DNA of 64,000 bases from Escherichia phage CMS-2020a, in sequence record CP053388.1. The stretch is one strand, 5' to 3'. A program made the translations under genes and the position numbers. Below are positions 2,311 to 61,286 of the stretch, in pieces. Within the stretch, counting starts at the first letter, position 1, and each line of letters begins with the position of its first letter. A model generated the notes under the pieces. It made no database searches. It saw nothing but the letters and a program-made list of their open reading frames with translations, and was not told where the DNA came from.

Positions 2311-5300
2311 TTACATTTTTGCCTTCAGTTCGCGCACTTCCTCGCGCAGCTCTTTGACAGCCTCGACCAACATGCCGATAACGCCGTTGTAGTTAAGACG
2401 CAGACGAGGCTCTCCTGACTGATCGTTATGGTCAACCGTTACCAGTTCAGGCTGAACATTCTGGACGTCCTGAGCGATGAGGCCGCCAGACTGCTCATAC
2501 CGGTCACAGACCTGAATCTCGTACAGAACACCTTCGATCCGATCCAGCTTGTCGAGCGCTCGTTCAATCTTGCGAATATTGCGTTTGCTACGACGGTCAG
2601 AGCGGATATAAACGTCATTAAAGCTGCCATTACCGCCACAAACCCAAGTACCATCATTCTGGAGGTATGCGTTCGCATCCGTGCCGTTTGCGGTACGTGA
2701 GTTGTTGATCATGTAAAAACCAAACTGACTGTTTCCCAAGCCACCCAAGAAGAATTTGCGATCCGCGTGGTCTTGTCTCAACAACGCTTGTGCAGAGCTT
2801 GTACTTACAGCGTTCCTCCCGAAGATGACGTTCTGGTTACGCATATCTATCCACGCGCCAGAGCCGCTGTTGATGGAAAAACGGTTGGCGTAAACCCACG
2901 CACTTGACGTGATGTCACCCGTTACACTCAACGGCTTAAGGCTTTGCAGCGTGCTATTAACGAACCTAAAAACATGGGCGCTATTGGCGTAAACATCCAG
3001 AATGCCATCTCCGTTCTGTTTAAAGCCGGTGTCATTGTCACCCAGAACAATGGAATTACCGCCAAGAGCACTGGATGTACCGATGCCCAGTGCACCATTC
3101 AATTGACCTCCAGATAATGATAACGCCCCAACATCAGCAGCAGTCGGTTTAATGTGCGAACTGTAAATTACATATACAGTTCCATCTGTCAGGCCTGTTG
3201 GTTTATTCGCTGTATAAGTTGGTGATGTATGAATCGTTACGCTGGCGTTACTGGTATAATCCCACTGGATATTAACACCTGTGGCGTAATTACCTATTTC
3301 TACATAAATGTCATAGGTATCACCGGATGTATTCACCCATGCAAAATTAGTAAATCCAACCGAGGTCCGTCGCCATAATGCACCAGTAATACCTTTGGGG
3401 TTCCCATTTCCTGCACGCAGAACCAGCTCAGAGATGCCTGCTTGCTGCGGGGAGCCAACGTTAAACCCTGCGCCACCAATCAGGCTTATGTAAACCACGG
3501 AACTGGCTTGTGGCATGGTTACAGTTGCCAGCTTGAACCATCCGGCACCACCACTAAAAGACATTGTTGCTGAGTTGATCGTGCCTATAGACCTTGGAGT
3601 TAGCTCAATATTTTTAGAACCGTCAAACGACACCCCATTTATAGTTCTAGCGGTTTGTAACTTGGTCGCTGTCGCTGCATTACCGGTTGTGTTCTGGTTA
3701 CCAGCAATGTTTACACCCGGCAGGTTGATATTGGCGGAGCCATCGAATGACACGCCGCCTATTGTGCGTGCTGTTTGCAGTTTTGTTGCAGTTGCAGCAT
3801 TACCGTTCAAACTACCATTGATGCCGCCAGTAACATTGAGTCCATTACCGATCGTAACAGCACCGCTGGTATTATTAATTATAATAGGTCGCAAACCGTT
3901 CCATGAACCTAATGTGTCTCCTGATGCTGTTAGCATGAAATATGTGTTCGATCCATCATTACGGATAAAGAATCCATAGTTGCCATAGGCAATGCGCAGA
4001 CCATTCGCCGATTTTGAAATAATCTCGCCAGCAGCAGTTAATCCGCCAGTTAACGCTCCTCCAGAAAGCGATAATGCTCCTACATCAGAAGCTGTTGGTT
4101 TGTTTCTAGTGTTATAAGAACGACGCCAGCCTGGCGCGTAATCACTGCCATTGTACACATAAATAAATTCCGCATTGTTAACACCACCATGACCCGATGT
4201 TGTTGTCGTTGTAACACGAATAGTGTAGTGGCTTGTTGCCTTATTACTAAACACCTCAATCACGGAACCAGATAGATCGATCCTACCGCAACCAGTGTCG
4301 TCTATATAATTATTGTTGGCGTAAGTCCATGAGCACCGTGCGATCCAATGTTTGTTTGTAAATGCCCCCTGATTATTTAGCCAAGTTATAAATTGAGCAG
4401 TCGTAAATGCCGTTCCGTTACCACTATTTAACCATCCAGCGGCAGCGGTTGGCGCGTTTATATCAGCCGGCTGAGGCATAAATCCAGTCGTGTAAACCTG
4501 CTCCCAACCACTTTCAAAACCATAGCCATCTCTTGAGGAACGGTAGAACAGACCACCATTTTTATAGTGAGCTTTAATTTGAAGCGTACGGCAACTACCT
4601 AAACCGGTATAAAAGTTGGCAAGAATATAACTGTGGCCTGTTCTATTTACATTATAAGCACCAGATTCAGCATTCCACGGCACGCCACCATCAGCATCCG
4701 CATATGACCCTGTTGCCCTTCTTGCGAAAGCGGCAACATGCGCAGCGGTTAAAGTGATATCAGTAGAACCATCAAATGGAACACCGGATATTTTTCTTAC
4801 CGTCTGAAGTTTTGTAGCAGTTGCAGCATTACCAGTGGTGTTCTGATTACCCGTAGTGTTTACACCTGGAAGGTTAATATTTGCAGAACCGTCGAAAACA
4901 ACTCCACCGATAGATCTTGCCGTCTGCAATTTCGTGGCTGTACTTGCATTACCATTCAATGAACCAGTTAATCCACCTGTAACAGACAACGGACCTGAAA
5001 CTGTTCCTCCGGTTGTTGGCAGTGCTCCAATATCTAACGGCGTCGGTTTCTGATGTGTGCTATACATCGTATAAACAACACCATCGGTAACGCTGGAAGG
5101 CTTACTCGCTGAATATGTTGGCGATGTATAAATAGAAACTGTCGCATTTGCAGTACAATCCCAATGGATATTTACACGAGTCGCATAATTGCCAATCTCA
5201 ACGTAAATATCATATGTATCGCCGGATGTGTTGATCCAGGCGAAATTCGTTAACCCGACGGCTGTACGCTTCCACAAAGCCCCGGTAATTCCTTTGGGGT

Positions 5301-7041
5301 TTCCATTGCCTGCTCGTAGAACCAGTTCTGAAATGCCTGCCTGATGTGGGGAACCGACGTTGTAACCAGCGCCACCAATCAATGCGATGTAAACGATGGA
5401 ACTCGCTTGTGGCATGGTAACCGTAGCCAGTTTGAACCACCCAGCCCCGCCAGAGAAAGACATCGTTACTGAATTTAAAGTACCAATATCTTTCGGCGTT
5501 AATGTTATATCCGCAGTCAGTGCTTTTCCGTTAACTTTTCGGTTAGATGGCACCCTGCTATTCGCATTGTCATTGGCTGCTTTAACTGCTTTTGGCGTTG
5601 CGGCCAGCGATTCACTGGTGCTATCAACAGCACTGCTAAGTTTCACAACACCTTTAGTTGTAAGGCTTGCGTCTTCCATCGCAACTGCACCGGCAATCTC
5701 TTCAGCACGATCAGCAGCAGCTTCCGCACGGGTCGCAGCGGATTCAGCAGCAGTTTTGCTCTGAGATGCTGCCGTCGCACTGCCTGCCGCCTCTGTTGCT
5801 TTCGTGGATGCCGTCGTGGCGCTGCCCTTCGCTGCTGACGCCTGTCTGGTCGCCTCATCTTTTGAAGCAGACGCAGATGATGCCGATGACGCTGCCGAAC
5901 TGGCGGACGATGCGGCTGCCGTTTTTGAGGATTCTGCACGGGTTTCCGACGCTTTCGCGTTCGTTTCGGATGTCTTCGCTGCGGAAGCAGACCTCGCTGC
6001 TGCGCTGGCCTGTTCAGTGGCTTCGCCAGCCTTCGTTGTGGCTGTTGAAGCAGACGATGCGGCACTTTCTGCCGATTTTCCGGCGGCGGTGGCACTGGCT
6101 GAGGCCTGCCCGGCACTTGTTGACGCGGCACTGGCAGACGACGCAGCCGCTGTTTTTGAGCCTGCCGCAGCTGAGGCACTCTGTCCCGCTGCCGTTTCAG
6201 AAGACCTGGCGTTCGTCTCGGACGTTTTTGCCGCCTTCGCGGAATTGCCTGCCGCTGTTGCCGAGGAGGCTGCACTACTGGCGCTCGAGGCTGCGCTCGT
6301 TTCTGATGATTTTGCCGCCTCTTTTGAAGCCGACGCATCTCTGGCTGAGGTGGCAGCTTCTGACGCTTTCGTGGTCGCGGTGGATGCAGAAGTGGCTGCA
6401 GATTTTTGTGACGCTGCAGCATTCGTTTCAGATTTTTTCGCAGCAGTTGCACTCGCACTTGCGGCACTTTGTGAGGATGCCGCAGCGGATGCACTTTGAG
6501 ACGCTTGAGAGGCTTTTTCTCCAGCGATATTGGCGCTTTCTGCTGCTGCGGCAGCACTGGCCGCCGCCTCACGAGCTTTGTCGCCAGCAGCATCAATCGC
6601 GTCAGTGTTATTTTTATACCACTCAACGTTTTCGTTGTGCTCGTTGACGATCTGCATTAGCGGCTTAACGGTCACTTCTGTACCGTCTTCACGCTCGATT
6701 GTCACCTCATCCAGAGCAGTCAACCAACTGCGCATGGACTTGGAATCAGCCGACATACGCGACATTAGTGCTGTAAAGCGCGCGCTAAACTGTGTTAAGT
6801 CGCCTTCATAGGTCGTAATGATTCGGCACGGAACTTCAGACTGAGTTTCGCCGGTATAAGGTTCTGAGAGAACAATGTTCGTATCACTGGTTACGCGCTT
6901 GATCTCATACAGCTTATTGTCGGGGCCAATGACGATCATCCCCGGCAACACACCATTAGCTGTTACGTTCCAGGCTGTCCCTGCCCCAACCAGAGTATTG
7001 CTACCCTGTGTAAATGTGATAGTACCTTCCCTGTACCACAT
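2311..7041 (-). CDS. long tail fibre protein with Ala/Ser-rich stalk, duplicated receptor-binding-type modules and C-terminal intramolecular chaperone (S74-like) domain
   Basis: 1576 aa; repeated TIGGVxFDGSxNIxL and NAATATKLQTAR fibre repeats; two copies of the MSFSGGAGWFKLATVTMPQASS module; C-terminal SDRRSKRNI motif. Confidence 0.9.
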   Translation of the reverse strand: MWYREGTITFTQGSNTLVGAGTAWNVTANGVLPGMIVIGPDNKLYEIKRVTSDTNIVLSEPYTGETQSEVPCRIITTYEGDLTQFSARFTALMSRMSADSKSMRSWLTALDEVTIEREDGTEVTVKPLMQIVNEHNENVEWYKNNTDAIDAAGDKAREAAASAAAAAESANIAGEKASQASQSASAAASSQSAASASATAAKKSETNAAASQKSAATSASTATTKASEAATSARDASASKEAAKSSETSAASSASSAASSATAAGNSAKAAKTSETNARSSETAAGQSASAAAGSKTAAASSASAASTSAGQASASATAAGKSAESAASSASTATTKAGEATEQASAAARSASAAKTSETNAKASETRAESSKTAAASSASSAASSASSASASKDEATRQASAAKGSATTASTKATEAAGSATAASQSKTAAESAATRAEAAADRAEEIAGAVAMEDASLTTKGVVKLSSAVDSTSESLAATPKAVKAANDNANSRVPSNRKVNGKALTADITLTPKDIGTLNSVTMSFSGGAGWFKLATVTMPQASSIVYIALIGGAGYNVGSPHQAGISELVLRAGNGNPKGITGALWKRTAVGLTNFAWINTSGDTYDIYVEIGNYATRVNIHWDCTANATVSIYTSPTYSASKPSSVTDGVVYTMYSTHQKPTPLDIGALPTTGGTVSGPLSVTGGLTGSLNGNASTATKLQTARSIGGVVFDGSANINLPGVNTTGNQNTTGNAATATKLQTVRKISGVPFDGSTDITLTAAHVAAFARRATGSYADADGGVPWNAESGAYNVNRTGHSYILANFYTGLGSCRTLQIKAHYKNGGLFYRSSRDGYGFESGWEQVYTTGFMPQPADINAPTAAAGWLNSGNGTAFTTAQFITWLNNQGAFTNKHWIARCSWTYANNNYIDDTGCGRIDLSGSVIEVFSNKATSHYTIRVTTTTTSGHGGVNNAEFIYVYNGSDYAPGWRRSYNTRNKPTASDVGALSLSGGALTGGLTAAGEIISKSANGLRIAYGNYGFFIRNDGSNTYFMLTASGDTLGSWNGLRPIIINNTSGAVTIGNGLNVTGGINGSLNGNAATATKLQTARTIGGVSFDGSANINLPGVNIAGNQNTTGNAATATKLQTARTINGVSFDGSKNIELTPRSIGTINSATMSFSGGAGWFKLATVTMPQASSVVYISLIGGAGFNVGSPQQAGISELVLRAGNGNPKGITGALWRRTSVGFTNFAWVNTSGDTYDIYVEIGNYATGVNIQWDYTSNASVTIHTSPTYTANKPTGLTDGTVYVIYSSHIKPTAADVGALSLSGGQLNGALGIGTSSALGGNSIVLGDNDTGFKQNGDGILDVYANSAHVFRFVNSTLQSLKPLSVTGDITSSAWVYANRFSINSGSGAWIDMRNQNVIFGRNAVSTSSAQALLRQDHADRKFFLGGLGNSQFGFYMINNSRTANGTDANAYLQNDGTWVCGGNGSFNDVYIRSDRRSKRNIRKIERALDKLDRIEGVLYEIQVCDRYEQSGGLIAQDVQNVQPELVTVDHNDQSGEPRLRLNYNGVIGMLVEAVKELREEVRELKAKM
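3125..3840 (-). repeat. intragenic direct repeat block, copy 2 (module X2 plus fibre-repeat set 2) within tail fibre gene
   Basis: About 80-85% nucleotide identity to 4760-5470; antisense ORFs at 3515 and 5414 start with the same MVTVASLNHPAPP peptide. Confidence 0.75.
4760..5470 (-). repeat. intragenic direct repeat block, copy 1 (module X1 plus fibre-repeat set 1) within tail fibre gene
   Basis: Paralogous to 3125-3840 (offsets about 1.15 and 1.9 kb for the two sub-modules). Confidence 0.75.
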
Positions 7042-7134: not shown

Positions 7135-10100
7135 TCACAGACGGCCAATTCTTACTCGTAAGACGTTGTTATCGTCATAAACGTCAATCCGCTGACCATT
7201 TATAACCAATCGCCCATTGCCGCCGCTATTACCGTTGATCTCAAGCGTTCCATTTTTGCCGAACCGCCATCCAGATCTACCGCTAACAAAATTGGTAGAT
7301 TGCAGATCGCCTACTTTTGCATTGGTGATTGTGCCATCCTTGATATACGCTCCATTCATATAGGCGATACTGTTTTCGATAACAAATGGCGTTGTGATCT
7401 TCCCGTTAACAGAGTTGACCAAACCAAACCTGTCAGCCTGCACCAAAAACTGAGAAAGGCCAGTGGTGTCGATACCAAGCGCAATACCAGCAACATACTT
7501 CTGCCCTCCGCTCGTTGAAGTTTCCATTTTCAACGTCCACGCGGTTGACACTTTTTTGTTGGTATCAGCAATAGCTGTTGCCTGCTGTTGAATTGTCGCG
7601 GTATTTCCATCCACCTCTGCTTTCAGAGTATCGATTCGCCCACTCAGAGCATTATCTGCCTGCGTTCTCGCTGTCGTTTCAGTTGTTACCGCCGCGGAAA
7701 TGTTGGCTGCCGTTTGAGACTCTAAGTTTGTGATTTGAGTCGCCAATGCGGCATCTTGCTCTGTACGCGTTTTCGTTTCGGTTGCTACAGCCGCTTTAAT
7801 ATCCTCTTTGTATTGAGAGGTCAGCTTGGTGATCTGAGACGACAACGCCGAGTCAGCATCAGTTCGAGCCTGCGTTTCAACTGCAACGGCCGCACTAATA
7901 TCTTTCGCTGTCTGTGCTTTTAAACTTGAAACCTCTTTTGTTAAAGCGGTATCACCATCTGCACGAGCCGTTGTTTCTCTGGCAAGAGACGCCTCGAGAT
8001 CATTAGCTTTTGCTGTAAGAGACGTAATCTGGGTAGACAATGCACTATCGGCATCAGTCCTTGCTTTTGTCTCTACAGCAACCGCTGCGGCAATATCAGT
8101 TCCGGTTTGTGCTCGCAGGCTGTTAATTTCTCGTGAGAGCGCCTGGTCAGCACTTGCCCTGGCCTCCTGCTCCTGAGTGATGGCAGCGGATATATCACCG
8201 TCAACCTTTGACTGAAGCTGGTTTATTTGTTTGGCTAACGCAGAGTCCCCGCTTGCTCGAGCCTCCTGCTCACTACGTATTGCAGCAGAAATATCATCAT
8301 CAACCTTTGCCTGAAGTTGGGTGATCTGGCTTGCCAGAGCCGAATCTTCCGTTGCTCGGGCTTCTTGCTCTTCCTTAATAGCTGCGACGATATCGTTGCT
8401 TACTTTCGACTCAAGCTGAGTGATCTGTGTCGTCAGAGCTTCATCGGCAGATGTACGAGCCTCCTGCTCTGTACTAATCGCCGCGCTGATATCTCCTTCA
8501 AACTTAGATTGCAGCTGAGTGACACGCTTTGCCAACGCTTCATCGCCATCGGCACGAGCGGTGGACTCTTCCAGAATACTGGCCTTAATGTCTTCGCCAA
8601 TTTCTACGCGAATTTCCTCAACCTTCGTGGCTATTGCAGACATATCATCAGCAAAGGTTTTCTGTGTTGTTGCGATCTTCGCGTTATTGACCATCTGCTT
8701 GTGCTGGTCTTCATCTTGACGAAGAGCCAGGTCAATATTTGTTTTGGCTAACGCCTCAATGTTCGTAGTCAGTTCTGCACTGGCACGATCGACCTCTGCA
8801 ACCGTCTTTTTCATTTCTTCAACGGCAGCGGAGCTTTCCTCTACCGTTGACTGCAACACTTCCAGTTGTTTAGCGTTTGCAGCATCGCCTTCAACACGAG
8901 CCTCGCTTTCCTTAGCAATAAGAGCCGCCGCTTCATCTCTTGCAGCCTTTATTGCCTCGACTGTATTAGCGAGAGCTTTATCGTGTTCAGATACGGTGTT
9001 TTCGATTTCAACAATTGCAGCATCAGTAGCATCAATTTTTTCAAACGCTTCATTGACCTTGTCAATCGTTGCCGAAACCTCACCTTTAAGCTCGGTTTGT
9101 GCGTTCTCCAAAGCATCGCTACGCTCGTTGAATTTTATTTCAAAATCCGCGAGGTTATCGCTGAACTGCTTATCTAATTCAGCTATATCTTCCTTAACGT
9201 CGTTTACCGCCCCCTCCAAAGATTCGACGCTCTGGTTGATATGCTCATTTAACTCGTCAACTGCTTCTTGAGAGGCTTTGCTGTTGATGTCCTCAAGCAG
9301 AGCCTGACCAAGCTCGGAAGATGTAATTTTGCCAGTCAGGAACGACAGTACATCGCGAGTTGTCGCCTCTGTACCCAAGTTTGAGTTCGGAGGACTTAAC
9401 ATACCTCGCTTGTTCGATGCTCGAACCCAGTAATACCACGTTTCGCTATCCCCAAGACCAGCATGTGTAAAGGTGGTGCTTGCAGACTCTGCGATCAGTT
9501 TCGCCGTATCCAGATTGTTGGTCTGGGATGCGTAAACATTAATGTGATCAAGGTCTACCGAATCTGGATTAACCCAATTCAGTATCACATTACGATAGTC
9601 TCCAACGGCCGTTAATGACGTTGGGGAATCCGGCGGTGTCATTGTGCCCAACACCTGATAAACGGTACTGATAATCTCTGTTTTTTTACCGTTGAATGAA
9701 ACCGCATACAGCTGGAAGTCGTAGCGTCCATTCTCCGCGACATTAACGATTTCGTATTGCTCTTCGGTTACACGCGCCGATTGCCAGTTCGATACATTGT
9801 TTTCATCAGAACGTCGCCAACTGATCCAATACTCTGGAGATTTCCCTTCCCATGTTGCAGTCAGTTTTACTGACAGGTTGCCAGGGCTTGAGAGATAAGT
9901 CCCTTCGGTGATTTGCAAATTAGACGGCTTGGAGTAAGTCGGGTCCAATACCGTCGTATTCTGCGGGATAAGCGTTGCACCATTGTCGATTGCCTCATAT
10001 TTAGACGGATTGTTCTCAACAGCGGTGATGTCAAAGCTACCCGGCGTTTCCCCCTGCGCGATGTTAACGATGCGAACGCGCATAGGTTCGAGATCTGGTT

Positions 10101-11868
10101 CTGTAATTGTCCAGACACCGTTCAAAACAGGCGTTTCCGCTGACGACAGGGCTTTTGAAAACGTAACCTTTGTTATGTTTTCGCCAGTTTCAAGAACATC
10201 GCGTTCAACGATTTTGCCTTCCTGATTCAGTATTCGAATAAAGCAGCCGCCTTTGGCTAACGACACCGGCGCATCGAGTGTGACGCTGTTTTTGGTAAAC
10301 GCCACAATTCGACCTGAGTTACGTTTGCCTGCGCGATATTTGTTCTGAATCAGAACGGTTTCACCAGGCATCAGAAATGACGCGTCTAAGCCGGCAGTAA
10401 ATGTAATTACATCCGACTCCATTCTGGCGGTATATAAAAGCCACAAACCAACTCGGTGAGCCTGCCCTCGGCTTGTACAGCCAAATGCTACGACTTCTGT
10501 CTTACGCTCACCATAACGGCGCATTGCGTCCTGATCTTCAACGTACTCGATGTTTTGCTTATAACCGTCCTCCTTGTTGTTGTAGGTTACGAGCGCAACG
10601 GATGGGCGATCTTTACGCGCAGAACCTTTATAGGTAAACAATCCATCTTTGACGTTAGAGTTGGTAAACATCATTACCGGATCTGATGGGCTATCCTGCA
10701 TGATGTTAACCATGCCACCAGCCCAAAACACCATACCGCGGAATGCACCGGCAATATCCTGAATTAATCGGTATGCGTCCTGTCGACTGGTGATCTGCGT
10801 ATTGATTGCAAAGCGTTTCTCTTTACCACCAAAGCCATCATCAACCTCTTCGTCACAATATCGACCGATCTGGTATAGCTGGCCGAGGTCAATCATAGAT
10901 TCCGACACATACTGACCAAGGCCATATCGAGCATTGGTAAGCAAATCAAAGAGAATCCACGCGGGGTTTGAAGAAGACAACAGCTTAAAAGTGCCATCCC
11001 ATACACCATCATAAGTGTTGCTGGCCTCGTTGTAGTTTGACGGCACGCGAATTTTTAATCCACGTACCAAATACGAACGAGATGGCATGGTGCTACCAAA
11101 CTGCTCAGAATTAACCTTCAGACCCACCAGCACAGAGTTTGGGTAGTTCATCGGTGTATCTACAATCTCACCTATTGAGTCCACCCATGTATCGTTATAG
11201 AGATACTGGCTGCTGTTATCATCGGTAATACGGACTACACGAACCTTGTACGCGCGTCCAGGCTTAGGCAGCTTCAGCTCATAGCTACGGTAATAAACAC
11301 CTGTCTTCTTTGCTGTTAGCTTAATGCCAACGCTTTTTTCACCTTCTGCGACCACATCTACAAATGTTGAGTCGCCATTTGCTATCTGGAACTTGTACTC
11401 AACGGTTGTACCGTTCGTGTCACCAGTTTTTTTATCTATGCTTCGCAAAGAAGGAAACTTCATGATGACACGAACCCGATCAGCTTCATCGTTATCGATT
11501 GAAACCGTTACATAATGTGTTTTTTTTAACTGGATATTGACGGATTTAGGCGTTTCAACGAAATCAAAGCCAGACATTGGAGTCTGGTCTTGCGAACCGT
11601 CGCGAAAATCCCATGTGATTCCGCTGAAGTTGGAGGAACCGTCTTCATTTACAATCGGCAGATCGTCGACAAAAATAGATCTTGCGCCATTTACCAAGCC
11701 GCCAATTACACCTTCCCCAAGAAGATCGAGGATAGCGGCCATTGCACGAGAATTTACGGTATCGTCGGCTTCAACCGGTGTACGGCTAGAGCTTTTGCTG
11801 CTTTTTTTACCACCCGCACCTGCAATAAACAGCGGTAACTTTTTCTTCTTGAACTGTTCCATGTTCAA
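7135..11868 (-). CDS. tail tip / host specificity protein (lambda J-like) with inserted coiled-coil repeat stalk
   Basis: 1577 aa; N-terminal region alignable to lambda J; about 10 tandem ~37-aa repeats of the ITQLxSKVxxDIxAAIxxEQEARxxxDxAL type. Confidence 0.9.
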   Translation of the reverse strand: MNMEQFKKKKLPLFIAGAGGKKSSKSSSRTPVEADDTVNSRAMAAILDLLGEGVIGGLVNGARSIFVDDLPIVNEDGSSNFSGITWDFRDGSQDQTPMSGFDFVETPKSVNIQLKKTHYVTVSIDNDEADRVRVIMKFPSLRSIDKKTGDTNGTTVEYKFQIANGDSTFVDVVAEGEKSVGIKLTAKKTGVYYRSYELKLPKPGRAYKVRVVRITDDNSSQYLYNDTWVDSIGEIVDTPMNYPNSVLVGLKVNSEQFGSTMPSRSYLVRGLKIRVPSNYNEASNTYDGVWDGTFKLLSSSNPAWILFDLLTNARYGLGQYVSESMIDLGQLYQIGRYCDEEVDDGFGGKEKRFAINTQITSRQDAYRLIQDIAGAFRGMVFWAGGMVNIMQDSPSDPVMMFTNSNVKDGLFTYKGSARKDRPSVALVTYNNKEDGYKQNIEYVEDQDAMRRYGERKTEVVAFGCTSRGQAHRVGLWLLYTARMESDVITFTAGLDASFLMPGETVLIQNKYRAGKRNSGRIVAFTKNSVTLDAPVSLAKGGCFIRILNQEGKIVERDVLETGENITKVTFSKALSSAETPVLNGVWTITEPDLEPMRVRIVNIAQGETPGSFDITAVENNPSKYEAIDNGATLIPQNTTVLDPTYSKPSNLQITEGTYLSSPGNLSVKLTATWEGKSPEYWISWRRSDENNVSNWQSARVTEEQYEIVNVAENGRYDFQLYAVSFNGKKTEIISTVYQVLGTMTPPDSPTSLTAVGDYRNVILNWVNPDSVDLDHINVYASQTNNLDTAKLIAESASTTFTHAGLGDSETWYYWVRASNKRGMLSPPNSNLGTEATTRDVLSFLTGKITSSELGQALLEDINSKASQEAVDELNEHINQSVESLEGAVNDVKEDIAELDKQFSDNLADFEIKFNERSDALENAQTELKGEVSATIDKVNEAFEKIDATDAAIVEIENTVSEHDKALANTVEAIKAARDEAAALIAKESEARVEGDAANAKQLEVLQSTVEESSAAVEEMKKTVAEVDRASAELTTNIEALAKTNIDLALRQDEDQHKQMVNNAKIATTQKTFADDMSAIATKVEEIRVEIGEDIKASILEESTARADGDEALAKRVTQLQSKFEGDISAAISTEQEARTSADEALTTQITQLESKVSNDIVAAIKEEQEARATEDSALASQITQLQAKVDDDISAAIRSEQEARASGDSALAKQINQLQSKVDGDISAAITQEQEARASADQALSREINSLRAQTGTDIAAAVAVETKARTDADSALSTQITSLTAKANDLEASLARETTARADGDTALTKEVSSLKAQTAKDISAAVAVETQARTDADSALSSQITKLTSQYKEDIKAAVATETKTRTEQDAALATQITNLESQTAANISAAVTTETTARTQADNALSGRIDTLKAEVDGNTATIQQQATAIADTNKKVSTAWTLKMETSTSGGQKYVAGIALGIDTTGLSQFLVQADRFGLVNSVNGKITTPFVIENSIAYMNGAYIKDGTITNAKVGDLQSTNFVSGRSGWRFGKNGTLEINGNSGGNGRLVINGQRIDVYDDNNVLRVRIGRL
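7670..8750 (-). repeat. tandem ~111-bp coding repeats (coiled-coil heptad array) inside J-like gene
   Basis: Repeating gcctcctgctc... units visible in DNA; protein repeats EQEARA(S/T)xDxAL. Confidence 0.7.
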
Positions 11869-35425: not shown

Positions 35426-35950
35426 ATGACAACCAAAGATATTACCTACGGTATCCAAGCTGAACTCTGGCCGCGAGATTACACTAACGTTGAAAAACTA
35501 CTGATGTTCTGGCGCAGAGAACAAATTCCTGTAAGGGTCACTCTCGAAGATGGCCAGGCGTTTTGCATGTACGTTTATGGCCTCATGCCATCTCGTAACA
35601 AAGTTGACCTTTGCCCAGCCCCTTTTGACAAAGAAAATCGTATAAGGCTCCCACTTGAACGCATTAGTACAATTGAATCAGGTGTGGTTGACAGTATCGC
35701 TCACGATTTCAAAGGTCGACTAACAGTTCACCCTGATTATGTCGATAATCGGCCATCACGCCGCGATTTTTTTGCAATTTGCAACCAAGCCTACAAAGCA
35801 AACAAATCTATAAGGGTGTACATGGCGGATGGCCGTGAAATTGAGGGGGTGTCAGCAGGTGCAGATGCTTGTCAGGTTACACTACGTGTCGAGAACGGTA
35901 GAAAAATAGTTGTTTTGTTCGATTGGGTTGAACGAATTTTGCCTTTTTGA
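35426..35950 (+). CDS. hypothetical protein
   Basis: ORF starting MTTKDITYG after lipoprotein stop. Confidence 0.45.
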   Translation: MTTKDITYGIQAELWPRDYTNVEKLLMFWRREQIPVRVTLEDGQAFCMYVYGLMPSRNKVDLCPAPFDKENRIRLPLERISTIESGVVDSIAHDFKGRLTVHPDYVDNRPSRRDFFAICNQAYKANKSIRVYMADGREIEGVSAGADACQVTLRVENGRKIVVLFDWVERILPF

Positions 35951-35953
35951 GTT

Positions 35954-36262
35954 ATGAAATCGATATTGTTACCACCATTATTTTTACTTTGCTCAGTTGC
36001 AGCAAATGCAATGGACTATAAGCCTGTCATTCAGTCGCTGATGAATGACGTGTGCTCAACGTCTCAGAATGTATCAGTTTGCATGTATCAATTTTCGGCA
36101 GCCGTAAAAGCAGGAAAAGCGATAGGCGAGAATGTGGAACTGTGTAAGAAAGTGGCAAATGAAGAACGGGCAATGTTGGATTGCGAATCTAGCGAGTCAT
36201 CGGCACAGTTCGTTGATGCGCTATTTGACACCAATCGTAAGGCTGTAGAGTCTGTTCAATAA
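35954..36262 (+). CDS. small secreted Cys-containing protein
   Basis: N-terminal signal peptide, several Cys. Confidence 0.5.
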   Translation: MKSILLPPLFLLCSVAANAMDYKPVIQSLMNDVCSTSQNVSVCMYQFSAAVKAGKAIGENVELCKKVANEERAMLDCESSESSAQFVDALFDTNRKAVESVQ

Positions 36263-36274
36263 ATCTATAAGGTT

Positions 36275-36306
36275 AATAACCGGCTAAGTCCGGTTATTAT
36301 TTTTCA
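36275..36306 (+). terminator. rho-independent terminator
   Basis: aataaccggctaagtccggttatt followed by T-run. Confidence 0.7.
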
Positions 36307-36453
36307 CATCACTTCTTTATATCTACAAATCAAATAACCTAAATATATATAAGGTCTAAAGCCGCAATCGATTATTTATTTAGGGAACACCTTCGACGAT
36401 CTCGCTTTTATTTCTAGGACTTTCATCCCTGCAAAAAATTTTAAAAAAAACAC

Positions 36454-36481
36454 TTGCAATCTTTTTTCGTATATCGATAAT
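36454..36481 (+). promoter_or_regulatory. sigma70-type promoter candidate for 36547-37701 cassette
   Basis: TTGCAA, 16-bp spacer, GATAAT; A/T-rich upstream tract. Confidence 0.45.
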
Positions 36482-36546
36482 TGAACTCGTCGAAAGCGAA
36501 GACGCTAACGACAATAAATTTTAAATTTACATAAGGAAAAATCATC

Positions 36547-37197
36547 ATGGCTAACATTATCATTTCTAAAAAATCCATCGTTGAAGCTGCTTCCATTGTA
36601 TCCGATGAACTGCGCGAAAAAGCAGATCTGGCAACTCAAACATACAACGAACATTATAAAAATGGTACGCACACTAAAGCAGACAAAGCAAATATGCAAG
36701 CTGCGACCACTAAACTAGCTTACTTCATCAACAACGTTGTAAACGCTGTAGAAGACGAAAAATTGTGCTCTGTTTTCTACTATGCGATTAAAGCAAGCAA
36801 ACAAGCGCCAGAAGTATTTTTTCGTGATGCAATGACTAATAGTTATTCTCTGGAAAAACTGGTTTATCTGGTTAAATCAATTAAATCTGGTAAATGCATT
36901 TATTCCATCGCTGATATGTCTGGATCTCGTGTATTCGCTTTAATCGATATGATTAACGACGAGATCGACACGTTCACCAATGGCGCTGTTTTCGATTTAA
37001 TGAATGAAGCTAAAAAAGCGTGTGAAATTAAATTGGACGCTGGCTATACTCAAGCCAACCAGTTGATCAATCTTTGCGAACGTCTCGGACTTGTTGAAAA
37101 AGTCAAAGGAGCTGGGAGCGCCAAAGCTGGTACACAGCAATATCGCTTTATCAAGAATGATTTCTACAATTATTTAGCTGATGCTTTTAAAGCGTAA
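36547..37197 (+). CDS. hypothetical protein (cassette gene 1)
   Basis: 216 aa, strong RBS TAAGGAAAAA. Confidence 0.6.
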   Translation: MANIIISKKSIVEAASIVSDELREKADLATQTYNEHYKNGTHTKADKANMQAATTKLAYFINNVVNAVEDEKLCSVFYYAIKASKQAPEVFFRDAMTNSYSLEKLVYLVKSIKSGKCIYSIADMSGSRVFALIDMINDEIDTFTNGAVFDLMNEAKKACEIKLDAGYTQANQLINLCERLGLVEKVKGAGSAKAGTQQYRFIKNDFYNYLADAFKA

Positions 37198-47082: not shown

Positions 47083-47472
47083 CTACATCACGGGACAATC
47101 ATCAAACTCGCCACTTCTTGCGTCGTTGATAATGTGAGTGATCACACCAAACACGGCATTGCTGCCCGTGCATCCATCGTCATCCTTTGGCAATGCTTCC
47201 TTCTTACCGGTTCTTAAATCCTCCAGATGCTGACGTGGGTACTTCCGGTATCTTTTTACGCGATATTCCCCATCCAGAGCGCATACAAGCAGAGAACCAT
47301 CAACCGGGGTAAGTGAGGAATCGACCACCAGCAATGCACCCTGTAATATTCCCTCACGATGATGACTATCAGCTGCCCTCATGAAGTAGGTCGCTGAAGG
47401 ATGTCTAATTATCTGCTGATCAAGAGAAATACGGCTCTCAACATAATCCGCCGCAGGAGAAGGGAAGCCCAT
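47083..47472 (-). CDS. UmuD'-like S24 peptidase-family protein (N-terminally pre-truncated, HumD-like)
   Basis: GFPSPAADYVESRISLDQQIIRHPSATYF aligns with UmuD from its autocleavage-site region onward; no umuC. Confidence 0.85.
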   Translation of the reverse strand: MGFPSPAADYVESRISLDQQIIRHPSATYFMRAADSHHREGILQGALLVVDSSLTPVDGSLLVCALDGEYRVKRYRKYPRQHLEDLRTGKKEALPKDDDGCTGSNAVFGVITHIINDARSGEFDDCPVM

Positions 47473-53121: not shown

Positions 53122-53142
53122 CTAAGTAAGTATTTACCTATC
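53122..53142. promoter_or_regulatory. motif B palindrome
   Basis: ctaagtaagtatttacctatc at the MTase gene stop. Confidence 0.5.
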
Positions 53143-54826
53143 ATTTAACGCGTTTGAAAACGTATACGCTGACTGTGATCCCTGTGTCTTCAAACTCGTT
53201 GGTAAACGACTTCCCTCTGGCATAAACGTAATTATCCATCGTCATCCAGTCCAGTATTGGCGCAGTGCCCGGCAATACTGCTACAAGACGCCCGCCGACT
53301 TTCAGATGCCCCAGCGCAGCCAGCGTGTGCTCTCTATGACGACCAAGCGAGTACGGCGGGTTCATAACGATTTTGTCGAACTGATAACCTACGTTGTCCT
53401 CAGACCACTTTATGAAGTCGCAGCAAATCGTGTTCGTATACCCTTTTCCGCGCAGGATATCAGCGAAGAGAGGTGCGATTTCTATGCAGGTAACATCTTC
53501 CAGATCGGCGTTGATATAGGCCAGAAGATCCCCACGTCCGGCTTGAGGCTCCAGCAGCTTCTCACCAGACTTCAATTCAGTGGCTCTGGCAACGTACTCA
53601 GCAATCAAGCGTGGGGTAGGGTAGAACTGGTGTGATTTTGTATCCGGTATTAATCCGGTAGCCACAATCGTATTTAGCGTATGGCCGATCTCATACGGGA
53701 ACTGCCAGTGTTTTTTCTCCTGCACGCCGCCAATGAAGCTCAGTGTGCGCTCAAGCTCTTCCACCTGCGACTTCTGGAGAGCTGAATCAGAGAAGTACCA
53801 TACGCCTTTGTCTTTGCTCAATCGCCCGTCACGAAGCGCAGTGCGAACCGGCACGGAGATCGTCTTCTGGATTAACCCGAACTGCTTTGGTGCCCGTGTT
53901 TTTGGCGCAGTTCGGCATGGCGCGGGGATTGCAGCAGGCATACTGTAAGCCAGCACCTCATTCAACTTCCAGGCCACGTCAGGATGTATTTCAAAGTGAA
54001 CGTTGCCGTTCTTGAACATCTTCACGCGCATCAGATTTCCATCGACGTTCATCCAGTCACCGGTCTGGCAGTCGTTTGCTCGATACGCAGCTGATAGCAC
54101 CTCAGCAGTGCGGTTGATGGTAATAAATTCTTTGTGCGCGAAGAAATGAAGCAAGACACGCAGATCGTCGATGTAGTCCTCTTTGCGATAGTTCACGCTA
54201 ACGCTGTCCCGCCAGAAATCAGAAATGCAGTCAGCGATTATCAGACGCTCGCTGAAACCGTTTGTCTTATTTGTCTTGTGCGCAGGACTCAGCGCCTTAA
54301 ACAAGCCATACACGCGCTCAGAGAGATATTTGTGCCTGTCATTCAGCAAATTAAGCATCGTGGGTATGACCGTTTCTGCTTTGAACTCCGGTACACCAAC
54401 GAACTCTTTAACCTTCATCTGGTAGCCGGTTCTGTCAGTTTTGATGACTTCCTGTTTGCCCTCTATAAACTGCTCGCGCCACTCATCTCGACGGGAAGCT
54501 GGCATGATCAGCAAAACGTTAGTCATGTCCGTGACCTTCCTCCAGTACTCGGCCCAAATATTCTGTTTCACCCATTCCAGATCGACTTTATCCAACCAAC
54601 CTCGATTTAAACGCGAGCGATCTTCATCTGGTCGATGGTTTAGTCTCAGCAGGCGATTAATCATGTTGTGGCGTTCGTCGCCATAAACGAAGTCGTGTAC
54701 CTGATACATGAAGGCGATCTCTTTCTCGCACTCGGCCACAATTTCGTGGATGACGTTCATTTCCTGCCGATAGTCGATAGCAGTGTTTGAGTTGGCATCG
54801 TCGATGATGGAAAGGGCTGTATTCAT
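53141..54826 (-). CDS. DNA methyltransferase (NPPY class) with ~380-aa N-terminal domain of unknown function
   Basis: C-terminal FYPTP, EPQAGRGDL (SAM-binding) and IVMNPPY motifs. Confidence 0.7.
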   Translation of the reverse strand: MNTALSIIDDANSNTAIDYRQEMNVIHEIVAECEKEIAFMYQVHDFVYGDERHNMINRLLRLNHRPDEDRSRLNRGWLDKVDLEWVKQNIWAEYWRKVTDMTNVLLIMPASRRDEWREQFIEGKQEVIKTDRTGYQMKVKEFVGVPEFKAETVIPTMLNLLNDRHKYLSERVYGLFKALSPAHKTNKTNGFSERLIIADCISDFWRDSVSVNYRKEDYIDDLRVLLHFFAHKEFITINRTAEVLSAAYRANDCQTGDWMNVDGNLMRVKMFKNGNVHFEIHPDVAWKLNEVLAYSMPAAIPAPCRTAPKTRAPKQFGLIQKTISVPVRTALRDGRLSKDKGVWYFSDSALQKSQVEELERTLSFIGGVQEKKHWQFPYEIGHTLNTIVATGLIPDTKSHQFYPTPRLIAEYVARATELKSGEKLLEPQAGRGDLLAYINADLEDVTCIEIAPLFADILRGKGYTNTICCDFIKWSEDNVGYQFDKIVMNPPYSLGRHREHTLAALGHLKVGGRLVAVLPGTAPILDWMTMDNYVYARGKSFTNEFEDTGITVSVYVFKRVK

Positions 54827-54929
54827 AATTGCACCATTAAGAAGTGATTTGTTTAATGGTGCAATTATTTCAAAAATGAAAAGGTACTAAATAGAAATAA
54901 ACAGGCAATCGTTCAAATAAAGGCATTGG

Positions 54930-55535
54930 CTAATCATACTTGGAGGTATTTATCACCAGAATTTTGTTTGTATAAATCTTCTTAATATCCCATGTGACAT
55001 TACCGGAATACCATTGACCGTTATATACTTGGTTTCCAGTTGCACCTGTCATTGTTACATAGACAGGTCTGTCGTAATCGGTTCGTCTATAGTTATATAC
55101 CCCAACCATAGCAGGCATTACCGCACATGGATACCCCATATCTATTGTAAATTGAGGGTCAGAAATAGTGATAAGTTTCGCATCAAGGGGCATCATCTCA
55201 CCGTGATACACCATTGCGCCTGCGCTGTTATACATGGCAATGCCATAGCCAGAATGTGGTAACACCATATCAGAAAAAGCATAAACTGTTATTGTTCCGG
55301 GGCTACCATTTACCTGATGCAATCTGAGAGCATTGTATCCGTTACTATGCTCATGAATAAACATCATGTTCGCCTTATTACTGCTTTTTATGAAGAAAAA
55401 GCATGATTTGTTTGATGGGATTGATGTTTGAAAAACAGAACCTTTAGATGTAGACATTGTCCCTTTATTAATCAGATTTTGCGGAGTAAATTCTGGACTC
55501 ATCCACAAACTTCCATCTGATTGAGTAATTGACAT
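54930..55535 (-). CDS. hypothetical protein (AT-rich cassette gene 2)
   Basis: Asn/Tyr/Gly-rich; start MSITQSDG. Confidence 0.45.
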   Translation of the reverse strand: MSITQSDGSLWMSPEFTPQNLINKGTMSTSKGSVFQTSIPSNKSCFFFIKSSNKANMMFIHEHSNGYNALRLHQVNGSPGTITVYAFSDMVLPHSGYGIAMYNSAGAMVYHGEMMPLDAKLITISDPQFTIDMGYPCAVMPAMVGVYNYRRTDYDRPVYVTMTGATGNQVYNGQWYSGNVTWDIKKIYTNKILVINTSKYD

Positions 55536-55546
55536 CCCGAACATAA

Positions 55547-55828
55547 TTATCCCCAGTATGTGTATATGTAAGAACCAAGCCCCGTATATAAATTTGACCA
55601 ACTAACCGTATTTCCATTAATAGTAACTGTTGGAACAGGTAAATTAATGTAGTTGTCGTTGTTAAGAGGCATCAATGACCACACGGCATGTAGCGATTTA
55701 CCCGGTGGCGGATTGGAGTACGTCTTAGAGCCTGATGACGCAGTAAATCGATCAAGAAAAAAAATAGGAGTAAGGAAGCCAGTAACGTTAATTCCTTTAT
55801 TGTTGTAAATCCCTGTACCGTATGACAT
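55547..55828 (-). CDS. hypothetical protein (AT-rich cassette gene 1)
   Basis: 93 aa, Asn/Tyr/Gly-rich. Confidence 0.45.
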   Translation of the reverse strand: MSYGTGIYNNKGINVTGFLTPIFFLDRFTASSGSKTYSNPPPGKSLHAVWSLMPLNNDNYINLPVPTVTINGNTVSWSNLYTGLGSYIYTYWG

Positions 55829-55882
55829 TTTTCACCCTTGTTTTTATCAACACAATATGGCCGATCATGCGGCCATATCAGA

Positions 55883-56452
55883 TCAATTAGAGCTTTGAAA
55901 GACTTTGTGTGGTTGTGTTGCGAGGTTATGTCGATGGCTTAACTCACGCATCATGTCTTCAAGCCGACTCTTTGTGTCGTCGAGTTGGTCGGCCATTGCT
56001 CCCAAAAGCTGACGAACGGCCATCGGATCATCGCTGTTTAGTGATGGCATTTTATAACCCGCCTGAGAAGACATAAGATTGAACGCAGACATCAACATCG
56101 TTAGAGAGGATTTAAGCCCAGCAATTTCACGATCTTTGCTGGCAATAATCGCCTCACTCTTGTTAGTGTCATCAGTTCGTTGAGTCTCGCTCACCATATC
56201 CAAAGTCGCCTGCAACTTATCAGCGCGCTCTTTTTCAGCAAGATAATGAACACCGAAATGATGTGCTAAAGCTACAACCTGAGTTGGCTCTTCAAAGGTG
56301 GACTCAAAATTAAGTGCTGTAACCACTCTCTCAAATATGGAAACGTCTTCTATTCCTCGAAGAATGGCTAACATTTTGACCAGTTCATTAGCATCCATTT
56401 CTTCGAATAAGGCGTTTTGTTCATCAGCTATCGCTTTGCATTTCTTGCACAT
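55883..56452 (-). CDS. hypothetical coiled-coil protein
   Basis: 189-aa ORF; motif A upstream. Confidence 0.5.
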   Translation of the reverse strand: MCKKCKAIADEQNALFEEMDANELVKMLAILRGIEDVSIFERVVTALNFESTFEEPTQVVALAHHFGVHYLAEKERADKLQATLDMVSETQRTDDTNKSEAIIASKDREIAGLKSSLTMLMSAFNLMSSQAGYKMPSLNSDDPMAVRQLLGAMADQLDDTKSRLEDMMRELSHRHNLATQPHKVFQSSN

Positions 56453-60476: not shown

Positions 60477-61286
60477 TCATCCAATAGTGTACTCCGCGAC
60501 AAACTTCTTAACGATCGGTGATTCTTCGTTCAATGTTAGATTTCCACCGTCTCTAACGGCAATTCCTGTCGCTGGAAATACAGCCATCATTTGCCCAGCC
60601 TGAGTTGACGCAGTATTAAGCGGATACGGTTTTTCTGGATTGCTCATTAAAGCAATCTTAATACTATTACTTGTAGCCTTCTTTTCTGTGAGAAGGTGTC
60701 TCATGGAAATTACCGTGTAAACACTAATATCTGGACCTCCGCTAAACCAATTAAGAAGGTTTAATATCTTATCCTTTGCTTTGACAGGCGCGTTATCGTA
60801 AGCGTCTAAGAAAATATCTTTTTCTAAGCCCGCTTTATTGAAAAACGAATCATCTTTATCACTTAAAGTAAAACGAGGACCTCTTGCAGTACGCGCTTTT
60901 TTATTTGTATTGCTATCATTTGACTGTTGAACTTTTAATTCATCATTAACCTCAACACACTCTTCAACCTCAATAAATCCCAATTGTTCTGGCTCGTTTT
61001 CGGCAGCTTCAACACTTTCAGCGTTAATTACGTTTATAGGCTCATGCGCTAACTCCAACTCATTTAAAGCAGAGCTGAAATCACCTGCTTTTTCTTCATT
61101 GAACAGTTCTTCGGCAACATCATCAGAACTCATGGCTACGCCAGCATCTAGGCCGAGCAGCAGATCGTCAATATCATCAGTATTTTCAACCTGTGCAGCT
61201 TTTTTTACTGGTTCATCAAGTGATTGCAACATGGCTGTCAGCTCGTCCAGATCAGCATTTGTCATTACATTTTCAACCGAACTCAT
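60477..61286 (-). CDS. hypothetical acidic protein
   Basis: 269-aa ORF. Confidence 0.45.
   Translation of the reverse strand: MSSVENVMTNADLDELTAMLQSLDEPVKKAAQVENTDDIDDLLLGLDAGVAMSSDDVAEELFNEEKAGDFSSALNELELAHEPINVINAESVEAAENEPEQLGFIEVEECVEVNDELKVQQSNDSNTNKKARTARGPRFTLSDKDDSFFNKAGLEKDIFLDAYDNAPVKAKDKILNLLNWFSGGPDISVYTVISMRHLLTEKKATSNSIKIALMSNPEKPYPLNTASTQAGQMMAVFPATGIAVRDGGNLTLNEESPIVKKFVAEYTIG

Follow-up and report, generated by a model that had tools for sequence, protein, structure and literature searches.

We analyzed an AT-rich two-gene cassette at positions 54930–55828 of a 64,000-nucleotide stretch of DNA from Escherichia phage CMS-2020a (sequence record CP053388.1; hereafter the window). 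The window is an Escherichia SSU5-like phage-plasmid and shares 98–99% identity with Escherichia phage Cyrano, which is plasmid pLF82, as well as with over 70 plasmids of ~105–115 kb from Escherichia. We propose, with a probability of roughly 0.65, that the cassette is a displaced, swapped-in module whose product, a split receptor-binding protein (RBP), attaches to the J-like tail tip of the element. BtuB would be the most likely receptor, an assignment that we rate slightly below an even chance. The protein pair belongs to a family already described in T1-like phages. Unusual here are its position far from the tail genes and the lack of an exclusion partner, together with the sharing of the pair among siphoviruses, Shiga-toxin (Stx) podoviruses and phage-plasmids and its split/fused relation to DUF6453 RBPs.

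Both genes lie on the minus strand. The small-subunit gene (55547–55828) encodes 93 aa, the putative tail-proximal adaptor part of the split RBP, and the large-subunit gene (54930–55544) encodes 204 aa, the putative receptor-contacting part. An earlier description made from the DNA letters (the sequence-only reading) had listed two adjacent genes for 93 and 201 aa; its coordinates and the 93-aa product stand, and the 201-aa product is corrected here to 204 aa. The ATG at 55544 (204 aa) is a better start than that at 55535 (201 aa), because homologues all open with M-[YF]-G-[ML]-S-I, because the RefSeq coding sequence is 615 nt long, and because a GGGGA Shine–Dalgarno-like run sits 7–8 nt upstream of this ATG. 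The stop codon of the small gene and the start codon of the large gene are separated by a 2-nt gap (TAA TT ATG), which is also 2 nt in JenP1 and Bas04. This spacing suggests that the two genes are translationally coupled.

Profile searches placed both proteins in known phage protein families. The earlier remark that they carry no recognisable motifs holds for Pfam and NCBIfam, where neither had a match above threshold, but not for PHROG. The small protein matches phrog_557 over its full length (E 6.2e-29), and the large protein matches phrog_425 (E 1.7e-70; residues 1–201 aligned to positions 6–224 of a 224-position profile). The same two PHROGs also cover the small and large genes of the RBP loci of Bas04, Bas05 and SSU5. 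The small protein is 76% identical to JenP1 gp22, 66% to ORF72 of Stx phages and 49–54% to its Bas04/Bas06 counterparts, while the large protein is 83% identical to JenP1 gp21, 62% to Stx-phage ORF73, and 39.0% and 42.4% to the Bas04 and Bas06 proteins, respectively, over residues 1–204 of 204. The FhuA-type pair of Bas05 and the pair of SSU5 are 24–35% identical to the window pair. The best rows of one tblastn search were mostly near-identical Stx phages.

These relatives connect the cassette to receptor recognition. In small siphoviruses, the alleles of an RBP locus beside gpJ predict the terminal receptor (Maffei et al. 2021), and in T1-like phages they do so without exception (Maffei et al. 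2021; preprint 10.64898/2026.04.02.716166). BtuB was identified experimentally as the terminal receptor of Bas04 and Bas06, and the terminal receptor of Bas05 is FhuA. Literature searches yielded no receptor data for Cyrano, PhiR41_1, JenP1 or other SSU5-like E. coli phages. The BtuB RBP family has been defined by >30% amino-acid identity and >99% coverage to BtuB-associated RBPs (preprint 10.64898/2026.04.02.716166), and the large protein falls within this definition. Bas04 (FritzSarasin; bas04_0023–0025) and Bas06 (KarlJaspers; bas06_0024–0026) carry a 92-aa plus 204-aa pair (91–92 aa for the small protein of the BtuB-type locus) in the same order and with the same 2-nt spacing, again composed of phrog_557 and phrog_425 and accompanied by a J-like protein with an ...LRVxIGR end. 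Their pairs differ from that of the window in standing beside gpJ and in being preceded by an 89-aa lipoprotein, presumed to act in superinfection exclusion. In JenP1, the pair directly follows gpJ, the central tail fibre gene, on the opposite strand and convergent to it, which is the RBP locus of Maffei et al. 2021. The alleles of the Nonagviruses JenP1, JenP2 and BRET (gp21–gp22) are the closest outside plasmids and, like the window pair, have no adjacent lipoprotein gene; unlike it, they occupy the canonical RBP locus. In Stx podoviruses, the pair follows a tail gene and precedes lom. The window pair departs from the T1-like RBP locus in that it does not lie beside gpJ; the pair of its close relative JenP1 does lie there.

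A further line of evidence links the pair to the single-chain RBPs of the Oekolampad/Rtp44 family. An exhaustive HMMER search yielded 112 cluster representatives, among them fused homologues of 307–325 aa. In most of these fused proteins residues ~100–315 match the large subunit (E 1e-12 to 1e-21), and the small-subunit profile is matched by the opening ~78 residues of several, 315–320 aa in length (E 1.6e-4 to 6e-3). The motifs FxFDxF...SGSxxY and SGNTVSW are common to the small subunit and the N-termini of several fused homologues. These fused homologues of ~315 aa identify the two genes as the split form of an RBP that elsewhere is one chain; in the window they lie in different frames and do not form one chain of ~310–320 aa. 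The large protein also showed sub-threshold matches to phrog_1265 (E 2.3e-6; residues 37–153 to profile positions 158–287) and to Pfam DUF6453 (15.4 bits, below the gathering cut-off of 25; E 0.012, over 62 residues only), against which the Oekolampad RBP scores 405 bits. Both matches are in register with the C-terminal two-thirds. Supporting this relation, the same three-dimensional fold was found as in the DUF6453/phrog_1265 LptD-binding RBP (PDB 9rpt). That protein differs from the window pair in being a single 321-aa chain that binds LptDE and is paired with an Rtp45-type exclusion lipoprotein. In the Oekolampad structure, the N-terminal, tail-proximal part is disordered; by analogy, the 93-aa protein would be the tail-proximal adaptor.

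AlphaFold2 models of both proteins are all-beta, with predicted local distance difference test (pLDDT) scores of 79 for the large and 82 for the small subunit. Asn, Tyr, Gly, Ser and Thr are enriched in the pair, and Glu, Arg and Ala are depleted; in the small protein, Asn reaches 11.8% (vs 5.0%) and Tyr 8.6% (vs 2.8%). The description of the pair as Asn/Tyr/Gly/Ser-rich and beta-rich was therefore accurate. Fold searches of BFVD returned uncharacterised phage proteins only, plus a few labelled tail fibres for the small subunit, an outcome that agrees with an RBP without adding information. We considered an internal three-fold repeat built on YGxxIYNxxG, which opens the small protein and occurs in the large one at residues 1 and ~100. 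It is backed by one 14-residue hhalign match (E 0.009) and weak secondary hmmsearch matches, and we retained it as a motif rather than as a repeat. PHROG labels phrog_557 as "outer membrane protein" and phrog_425 as "membrane associated protein" in the moron category. On reading the two sequences, whose N-termini are MSYGTGIYNNKG... and MFGMSITQSDGS..., we found no signal peptide, lipobox or hydrophobic segment in either, which makes these labels doubtful. Nor is there a lipid anchor or a transmembrane beta-barrel of the kind that marks outer-membrane proteins; the 93 and 204 residues are modelled as compact domains of beta-sandwich type. The two labels are probably wrong.

The cassette lies inside a long minus-strand block of replication and nucleotide-metabolism genes, between a gene for a DUF4942 DNA methyltransferase (53141–54826) and a phrog_5508 gene (55883–56452). 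Comparison with relatives revealed an empty site at this position. By BLASTN, the window is homologous to the E. coli plasmid p4_0.2 up to 54884 and again from 55925 onward; 1,040 bp in the window thus stand against 121 bp there, an intergenic stretch that holds the GC hairpin GGGGGCTGTCGCCCCC. Salmonella phage SSU5 and Klebsiella pJN2-26 carry both flanking genes, with a ~140-nt spacer and a GC-rich hairpin instead of the cassette. Relative to the empty-site sister plasmids, and from the alignments with SSU5 and pJN2-26, the whole inserted or replaced segment spans 54885–55924 and comprises the cassette, 45 nt downstream and 96 nt upstream, the last including the final ~14 codons of the phrog_5508 gene. 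DNA similarity to the Nonagviruses JenP1, JenP2 and BRET (76–79% at the nucleotide level) covers the two open reading frames (ORFs) only. Horizontal acquisition of the cassette is thus supported by sequence comparison, both because related E. coli SSU5-like plasmids, SSU5 and the Klebsiella relative all have the empty site and because the similarity to JenP1 ends exactly at the two ORFs.

The J-like central tail-tip protein, the proposed docking partner, is encoded ~43 kb from the cassette (7135–11868, minus strand, 1577 aa), with DNA-metabolism genes between. Its C-terminal ~190–200 aa are 35–38% identical to the J C-termini of JenP1, Bas04, Bas05 and Bas06, and it ends in ...VLRVRIGRL. All pair-carrying phages that we examined end J in ...LRVxIGR[LI], including the essential 422-aa Stx tail protein ORF71. 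We rejected the idea that the J C-terminus co-varies with the receptor allele: the window and p4_0.2 share the J end but differ in the pair, and the same is true of Bas04–06.

Our strongest evidence came from comparison of the tail modules, which revealed a reciprocal distribution of RBP alleles. The J proteins of the window and p4_0.2 are 97.5% identical, with identical C-termini. p4_0.2 carries an 84-aa plus 188-aa pair and cor between its tail fibre and holin genes, and in SSU5 the tail module closes with its own distant pair and cor, flanked by the fibre adhesin and holin genes. In the window, no pair and no cor stand at this place: downstream of the 1576-aa fibre gene lie a 279-aa Gly-rich ORF, then a holin-like ORF and the endolysin gene. 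Since an empty-site sister with a 97.5% identical J carries the SSU5-type pair and cor, which the window does not, the 1,040-bp segment is best read as a displaced, swapped-in RBP allele without an exclusion gene. The SSU5_023/024–Cor trio, also present in p4_0.2, shares the two PHROGs and a J C-terminus that is 87–99% identical, and appears to fill the same functional slot in the sister phage-plasmids. It differs in its 24–35% identity to the window pair, its position at the tail-module end and the FhuA-blocking exclusion lipoprotein Cor that follows, features from which the SSU5-type pair is probably a different receptor allele.

Genome surveys are consistent with this pattern. Among complete E. 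coli genomes, the cassette was found in 151 records (nearly all plasmids), the tail-module pair with cor in 68, and the flanks in 243. Among the matches listed, six of nine empty-site plasmids occur in the 60 plasmids with pair and cor, and a single record has both the cassette and the tail-module pair with cor, namely NZ_CP146657.1, an E. coli plasmid of 198,406 bp. The two loci of this plasmid lie at about 125.5–127.6 kb and 179.7–180.8 kb, and its length points to a cointegrate or to two fused SSU5-like elements. In a set of 124 plasmids with the cassette, 123 are from Escherichia or Shigella and one is from an uncultured source. The flanks are found more widely, in 688 records, among them Klebsiella, Enterobacter, Salmonella and Citrobacter. 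The large gene is present in a single copy in Cyrano.

Not every SSU5-like element has exactly one pair, an idea that we rejected since Klebsiella pJN2-26 has none and also lacks cor. Its J (pJN226_0075, annotated as 4045 aa) runs ~165 residues past the J ends of the Escherichia and Salmonella elements and is without the ...VRIGRL terminus; judged from the sequence, the extension is probably a built-in receptor-binding domain. A similar arrangement is known from LamB- and TolC-type small siphoviruses, which have a J extension in place of the RBP locus (Maffei et al. 2021). The LamB-type phage Bas21 carries no pair and has a C-terminal J extension instead.

The atypical composition on which the sequence-only reading relied was verified, and its interpretation changed. 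The GC content of the cassette is 38.8%, against 46.9% for the window, and just 2.3% of all 899-bp windows are this low. The two genes rank second and third AT-richest among 60 crude genes (z −2.4 and −2.2). At third codon positions, the GC content of the pair is less extreme (z −1.5), which indicates that part of the dip is due to amino-acid composition. The dip is also not unique, as three other stretches of the window (~35.7–36.8 kb, 47.4 kb and 60.5–60.8 kb) have equal or lower values. Moreover, the pair is 2–10 percentage points AT-richer than its surroundings in JenP1, Stx phages, Bas04–06, SSU5 and p4_0.2. Low GC in every split-type context marks it as a family trait rather than a time stamp. 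In comparison with JenP1, synonymous sites are saturated (proportion of synonymous differences, pS, 0.67–0.80) and nonsynonymous differences are few (pN 0.09–0.15; dN/dS about 0.06). These values indicate, at the sequence level, strong purifying selection on the pair and an old split from the JenP1 allele, and with synonymous sites saturated the JenP1-type allele is not a recent donor. Hence, the acquisition that had been deduced from composition is upheld on other grounds, by the empty sites and the confinement of the JenP1 similarity to the ORFs, but its dating as recent is not, since composition gives no such reading. Within the plasmid lineage, the cassette alleles fall into at least two classes, with 95–100% and 80–90% nucleotide identity; relative to PhiR41_1, identity is ~87% for the cassette stretch and, by calculation, ~96% for the flanks.

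Based on these findings, we propose a plausible mechanism for the pair. Both genes would be translated together during lytic growth, with the 93-aa protein serving as the tail-proximal adaptor and the 204-aa protein as the receptor-contacting head. The complex would join the conserved C-terminal end of the J-like protein (7135–11868) non-covalently, thereby entering the virion as a possibly essential component, and would mediate the irreversible attachment of the phage to a protein of the E. coli outer membrane. Judging by the family, this target would most likely be BtuB, the vitamin B12 transporter. The module would have taken the place of the SSU5-type pair and cor still found at the tail-module end in sister plasmids, and would have landed, without an exclusion lipoprotein, in an intergenic site of a DNA-metabolism/methylase operon. 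Consensus scanning of 54600–56100 revealed no sigma-70-like site and no minus-strand terminator; we therefore rejected a promoter or terminator of the cassette's own, and transcription probably reaches the cassette from the operon upstream. For this family, a place outside the tail operon is not unusual, as the pair of the T1-like phages Bas04 and Bas06 is also encoded opposite to the tail genes and downstream of genes for recombination.

Several observations weigh against this proposal. The cassette is ~43 kb from the tail genes, in an early-type operon, with no promoter-like site of its own. The role of BtuB- and FhuA-type RBPs rests on a correlation between locus and receptor and on AlphaFold3 models, receptor binding having been shown for the LptD-type single-chain protein only, and direct profile–sequence comparison of the pair with the Oekolampad RBP was not significant. 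Over its last ~60 residues the large subunit is very unlike the Bas04 and Bas06 proteins, so the receptor may not be BtuB. A cognate exclusion lipoprotein was not found in the 64-kb window, where ORFs with a lipobox are absent and tblastn with five such Cor-like lipoproteins gave no match; JenP1 and the Stx phages are also without one next to the pair. The count behind the mutual exclusivity of cassette and tail-module pair was taken over the rows listed and not over full accession tables. Finally, the counterparts in the Stx phage Sp5, ORF72 (ECs1234, 92 aa) and ORF73 (ECs1235, 205 aa), have each been deleted, with primers that encode ...FWG-stop and MY..., and neither counts among the nine genes that the phage requires for plaques or lysogeny on K-12.

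The Sp5 result shows that the pair can be dispensable, and it supports a view in which the tail tip would do without the pair: as an optional additional adaptor for a receptor, or as a decoration, the pair would broaden or tune host range while J or the 1576-aa fibre makes the indispensable contact. The Sp5/933W-type proteins are 66% and 62% identical in amino-acid sequence to the window pair and follow the essential ORF71 with its ...VRIGRL C-terminus, and the deletion mutants still form plaques and lysogenise on K-12; the phage that carries them, unlike the siphoviruses, is a podovirus. An accessory role would also suit the very large lateral fibre of the window (2311–7041) and its 279-aa Gly-rich protein at the place where SSU5 has its pair and cor, and dual-receptor T1-like phages have been published, for example with a NupG-specific J domain plus a locus-encoded RBP (preprint 10.64898/2026.04.02.716166). 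We nevertheless regard this as unlikely: sister plasmids that have this J in common each carry a single alternative pair, suggesting that the slot must be filled, the allele at the T1-like locus predicts the terminal receptor without exception, and the pair is under strong purifying selection.

Other functions fit the data far less well. The sequence-only reading favored defence, exclusion or host-interaction cargo. Lysogenic conversion through defence, superinfection exclusion or an envelope function would agree with the atypical composition, the insertion among non-structural genes, the moron category of phrog_425 and the position of the pair next to lom in Stx phages. However, PADLOC returned 0 families at E ≤ 1; the proteins lack the signal peptide, lipobox and hydrophobic segment expected of envelope proteins, and their models are soluble beta domains. 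True exclusion genes at such loci are separate lipoproteins, Cor and Rtp45-like. In Cyrano lysogens, moreover, the pair genes (CYRAN_88 and CYRAN_89) are transcribed at background like their silent neighbours and are absent from the moron list of the study; Cyrano does produce virions, and ciprofloxacin induces them. We thus consider conversion cargo highly improbable, and the defence and exclusion roles first suggested are not supported. Host interaction was right in another sense, as the pair is homologous to tail-tip RBPs. Indeed, the pair comes close to the conserved structural genes with which cargo had been contrasted, since relatives carry homologues as tail-module genes. A very remote chance is likewise given to the 204-aa protein being a C39-type cysteine peptidase, or to the pair being a tail-fibre assembly chaperone that is not in the virion. 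RefSeq names WP_000467662.1 a "cysteine peptidase family C39 domain-containing protein" (e.g. in NZ_OZ369339.1), and Cys48, Cys140, His97 and His114 are invariant in the close family. Pfam, NCBIfam and the predicted fold give no support to this name, with neither a Peptidase_C39 domain nor a papain-like fold found, and it is probably as mistaken as the PHROG labels. The searches left defence, NCBIfam-based and C39 readings alike without support, and we retain the split RBP module as the preferred reading.

Several further features were seen around the main loci. A stem-loop at 55855–55878 (minus strand; a 9-bp stem, ATATGGCCG-CATGAT-CGGCCATAT), read from the sequence and the alignments, lies 4 nt past the stop of the upstream phrog_5508 gene and 26 nt ahead of the small-gene start, where the empty-site relatives have their GC-rich terminator hairpin. 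A U-tract is missing, and consensus scanning did not classify the stem-loop as a terminator. On the other side of the cassette, a 14-nt inverted repeat with a 12-nt loop (AATTGCACCATTAA ... TTAATGGTGCAATT; 54827–54866, minus strand) ends just before the ATG of the DUF4942 methyltransferase gene (54826–54824). Both arms are altered in matching fashion in p4_0.2 (AATTACACC / GGTGTAATT). These changes look compensatory and suggest a conserved hairpin that may govern translation or transcription of the methylase. The AT-rich stretches elsewhere in the window lie at 35660–36810, 47390–47420 and 60550–60815, with a minimum GC of 0.356 near 36.3 kb. They include the genes at 36547–37197 (plus strand, 216 aa, the AT-richest gene) and 60477–61286 (minus strand, 269 aa), and may be further acquired cargo.

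In the tail module, the 1576-aa fibre (2311–7041, minus strand) contains a long Ala/Ser-rich low-complexity stretch and an internal duplication of several hundred residues, in which a ...SFSGGAGWFKLATVTMPQASS... block occurs twice, and its C-terminus looks like the self-cleaving intramolecular chaperone domains known from other phage fibres. The 279-aa Gly-rich ORF (1462–2301) holds the position of the adhesin, RBP pair and cor of SSU5. The third genes of the BtuB-type loci (89 aa) share an MKKLIAV...LTGC lipoprotein signal with the FhuA-type Cor and resemble it weakly (E 1e-10 to 6e-5), which suggests from sequence that the lipoproteins of BtuB loci are relatives of Cor.

A recent description treats the FhuA-, BtuB- and LptD-type RBPs of T1-like phages as families without relation to one another. 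Tentatively, and with rather more doubt than confidence, we suggest that they may form one superfamily, existing in split (adaptor plus head) and fused forms that plug onto the conserved C-terminal "...LRVxIGRL" end of J-like proteins. Owing to non-covalent docking, a 0.9-kb cassette of this kind could work from any genomic position and be exchanged across virulent siphoviruses, Stx podoviruses and phage-plasmids, acting as a free-floating host-range switch that here would re-target an SSU5-like phage-plasmid within Escherichia. Our analysis links the only structurally solved small-siphovirus RBP (Oekolampad/LptDE) to far more widespread split pairs, including those of Shiga-toxin phages, and it flags "outer membrane protein", "membrane associated protein/moron" and "C39 peptidase" as probably wrong labels in a large phage protein family.

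E. coli of clinical and animal origin often carries SSU5-like phage-plasmids, with the cassette present in 150 of 5,426 complete genomes, and such elements carry toxin–antitoxin systems and other cargo. If our proposal is true, it yields a testable receptor prediction, BtuB, for SSU5-like phage-plasmids, and genome-based receptor prediction must look past the gpJ-adjacent locus. Two alternative RBP alleles on one J could then give near-identical plasmids different host ranges.

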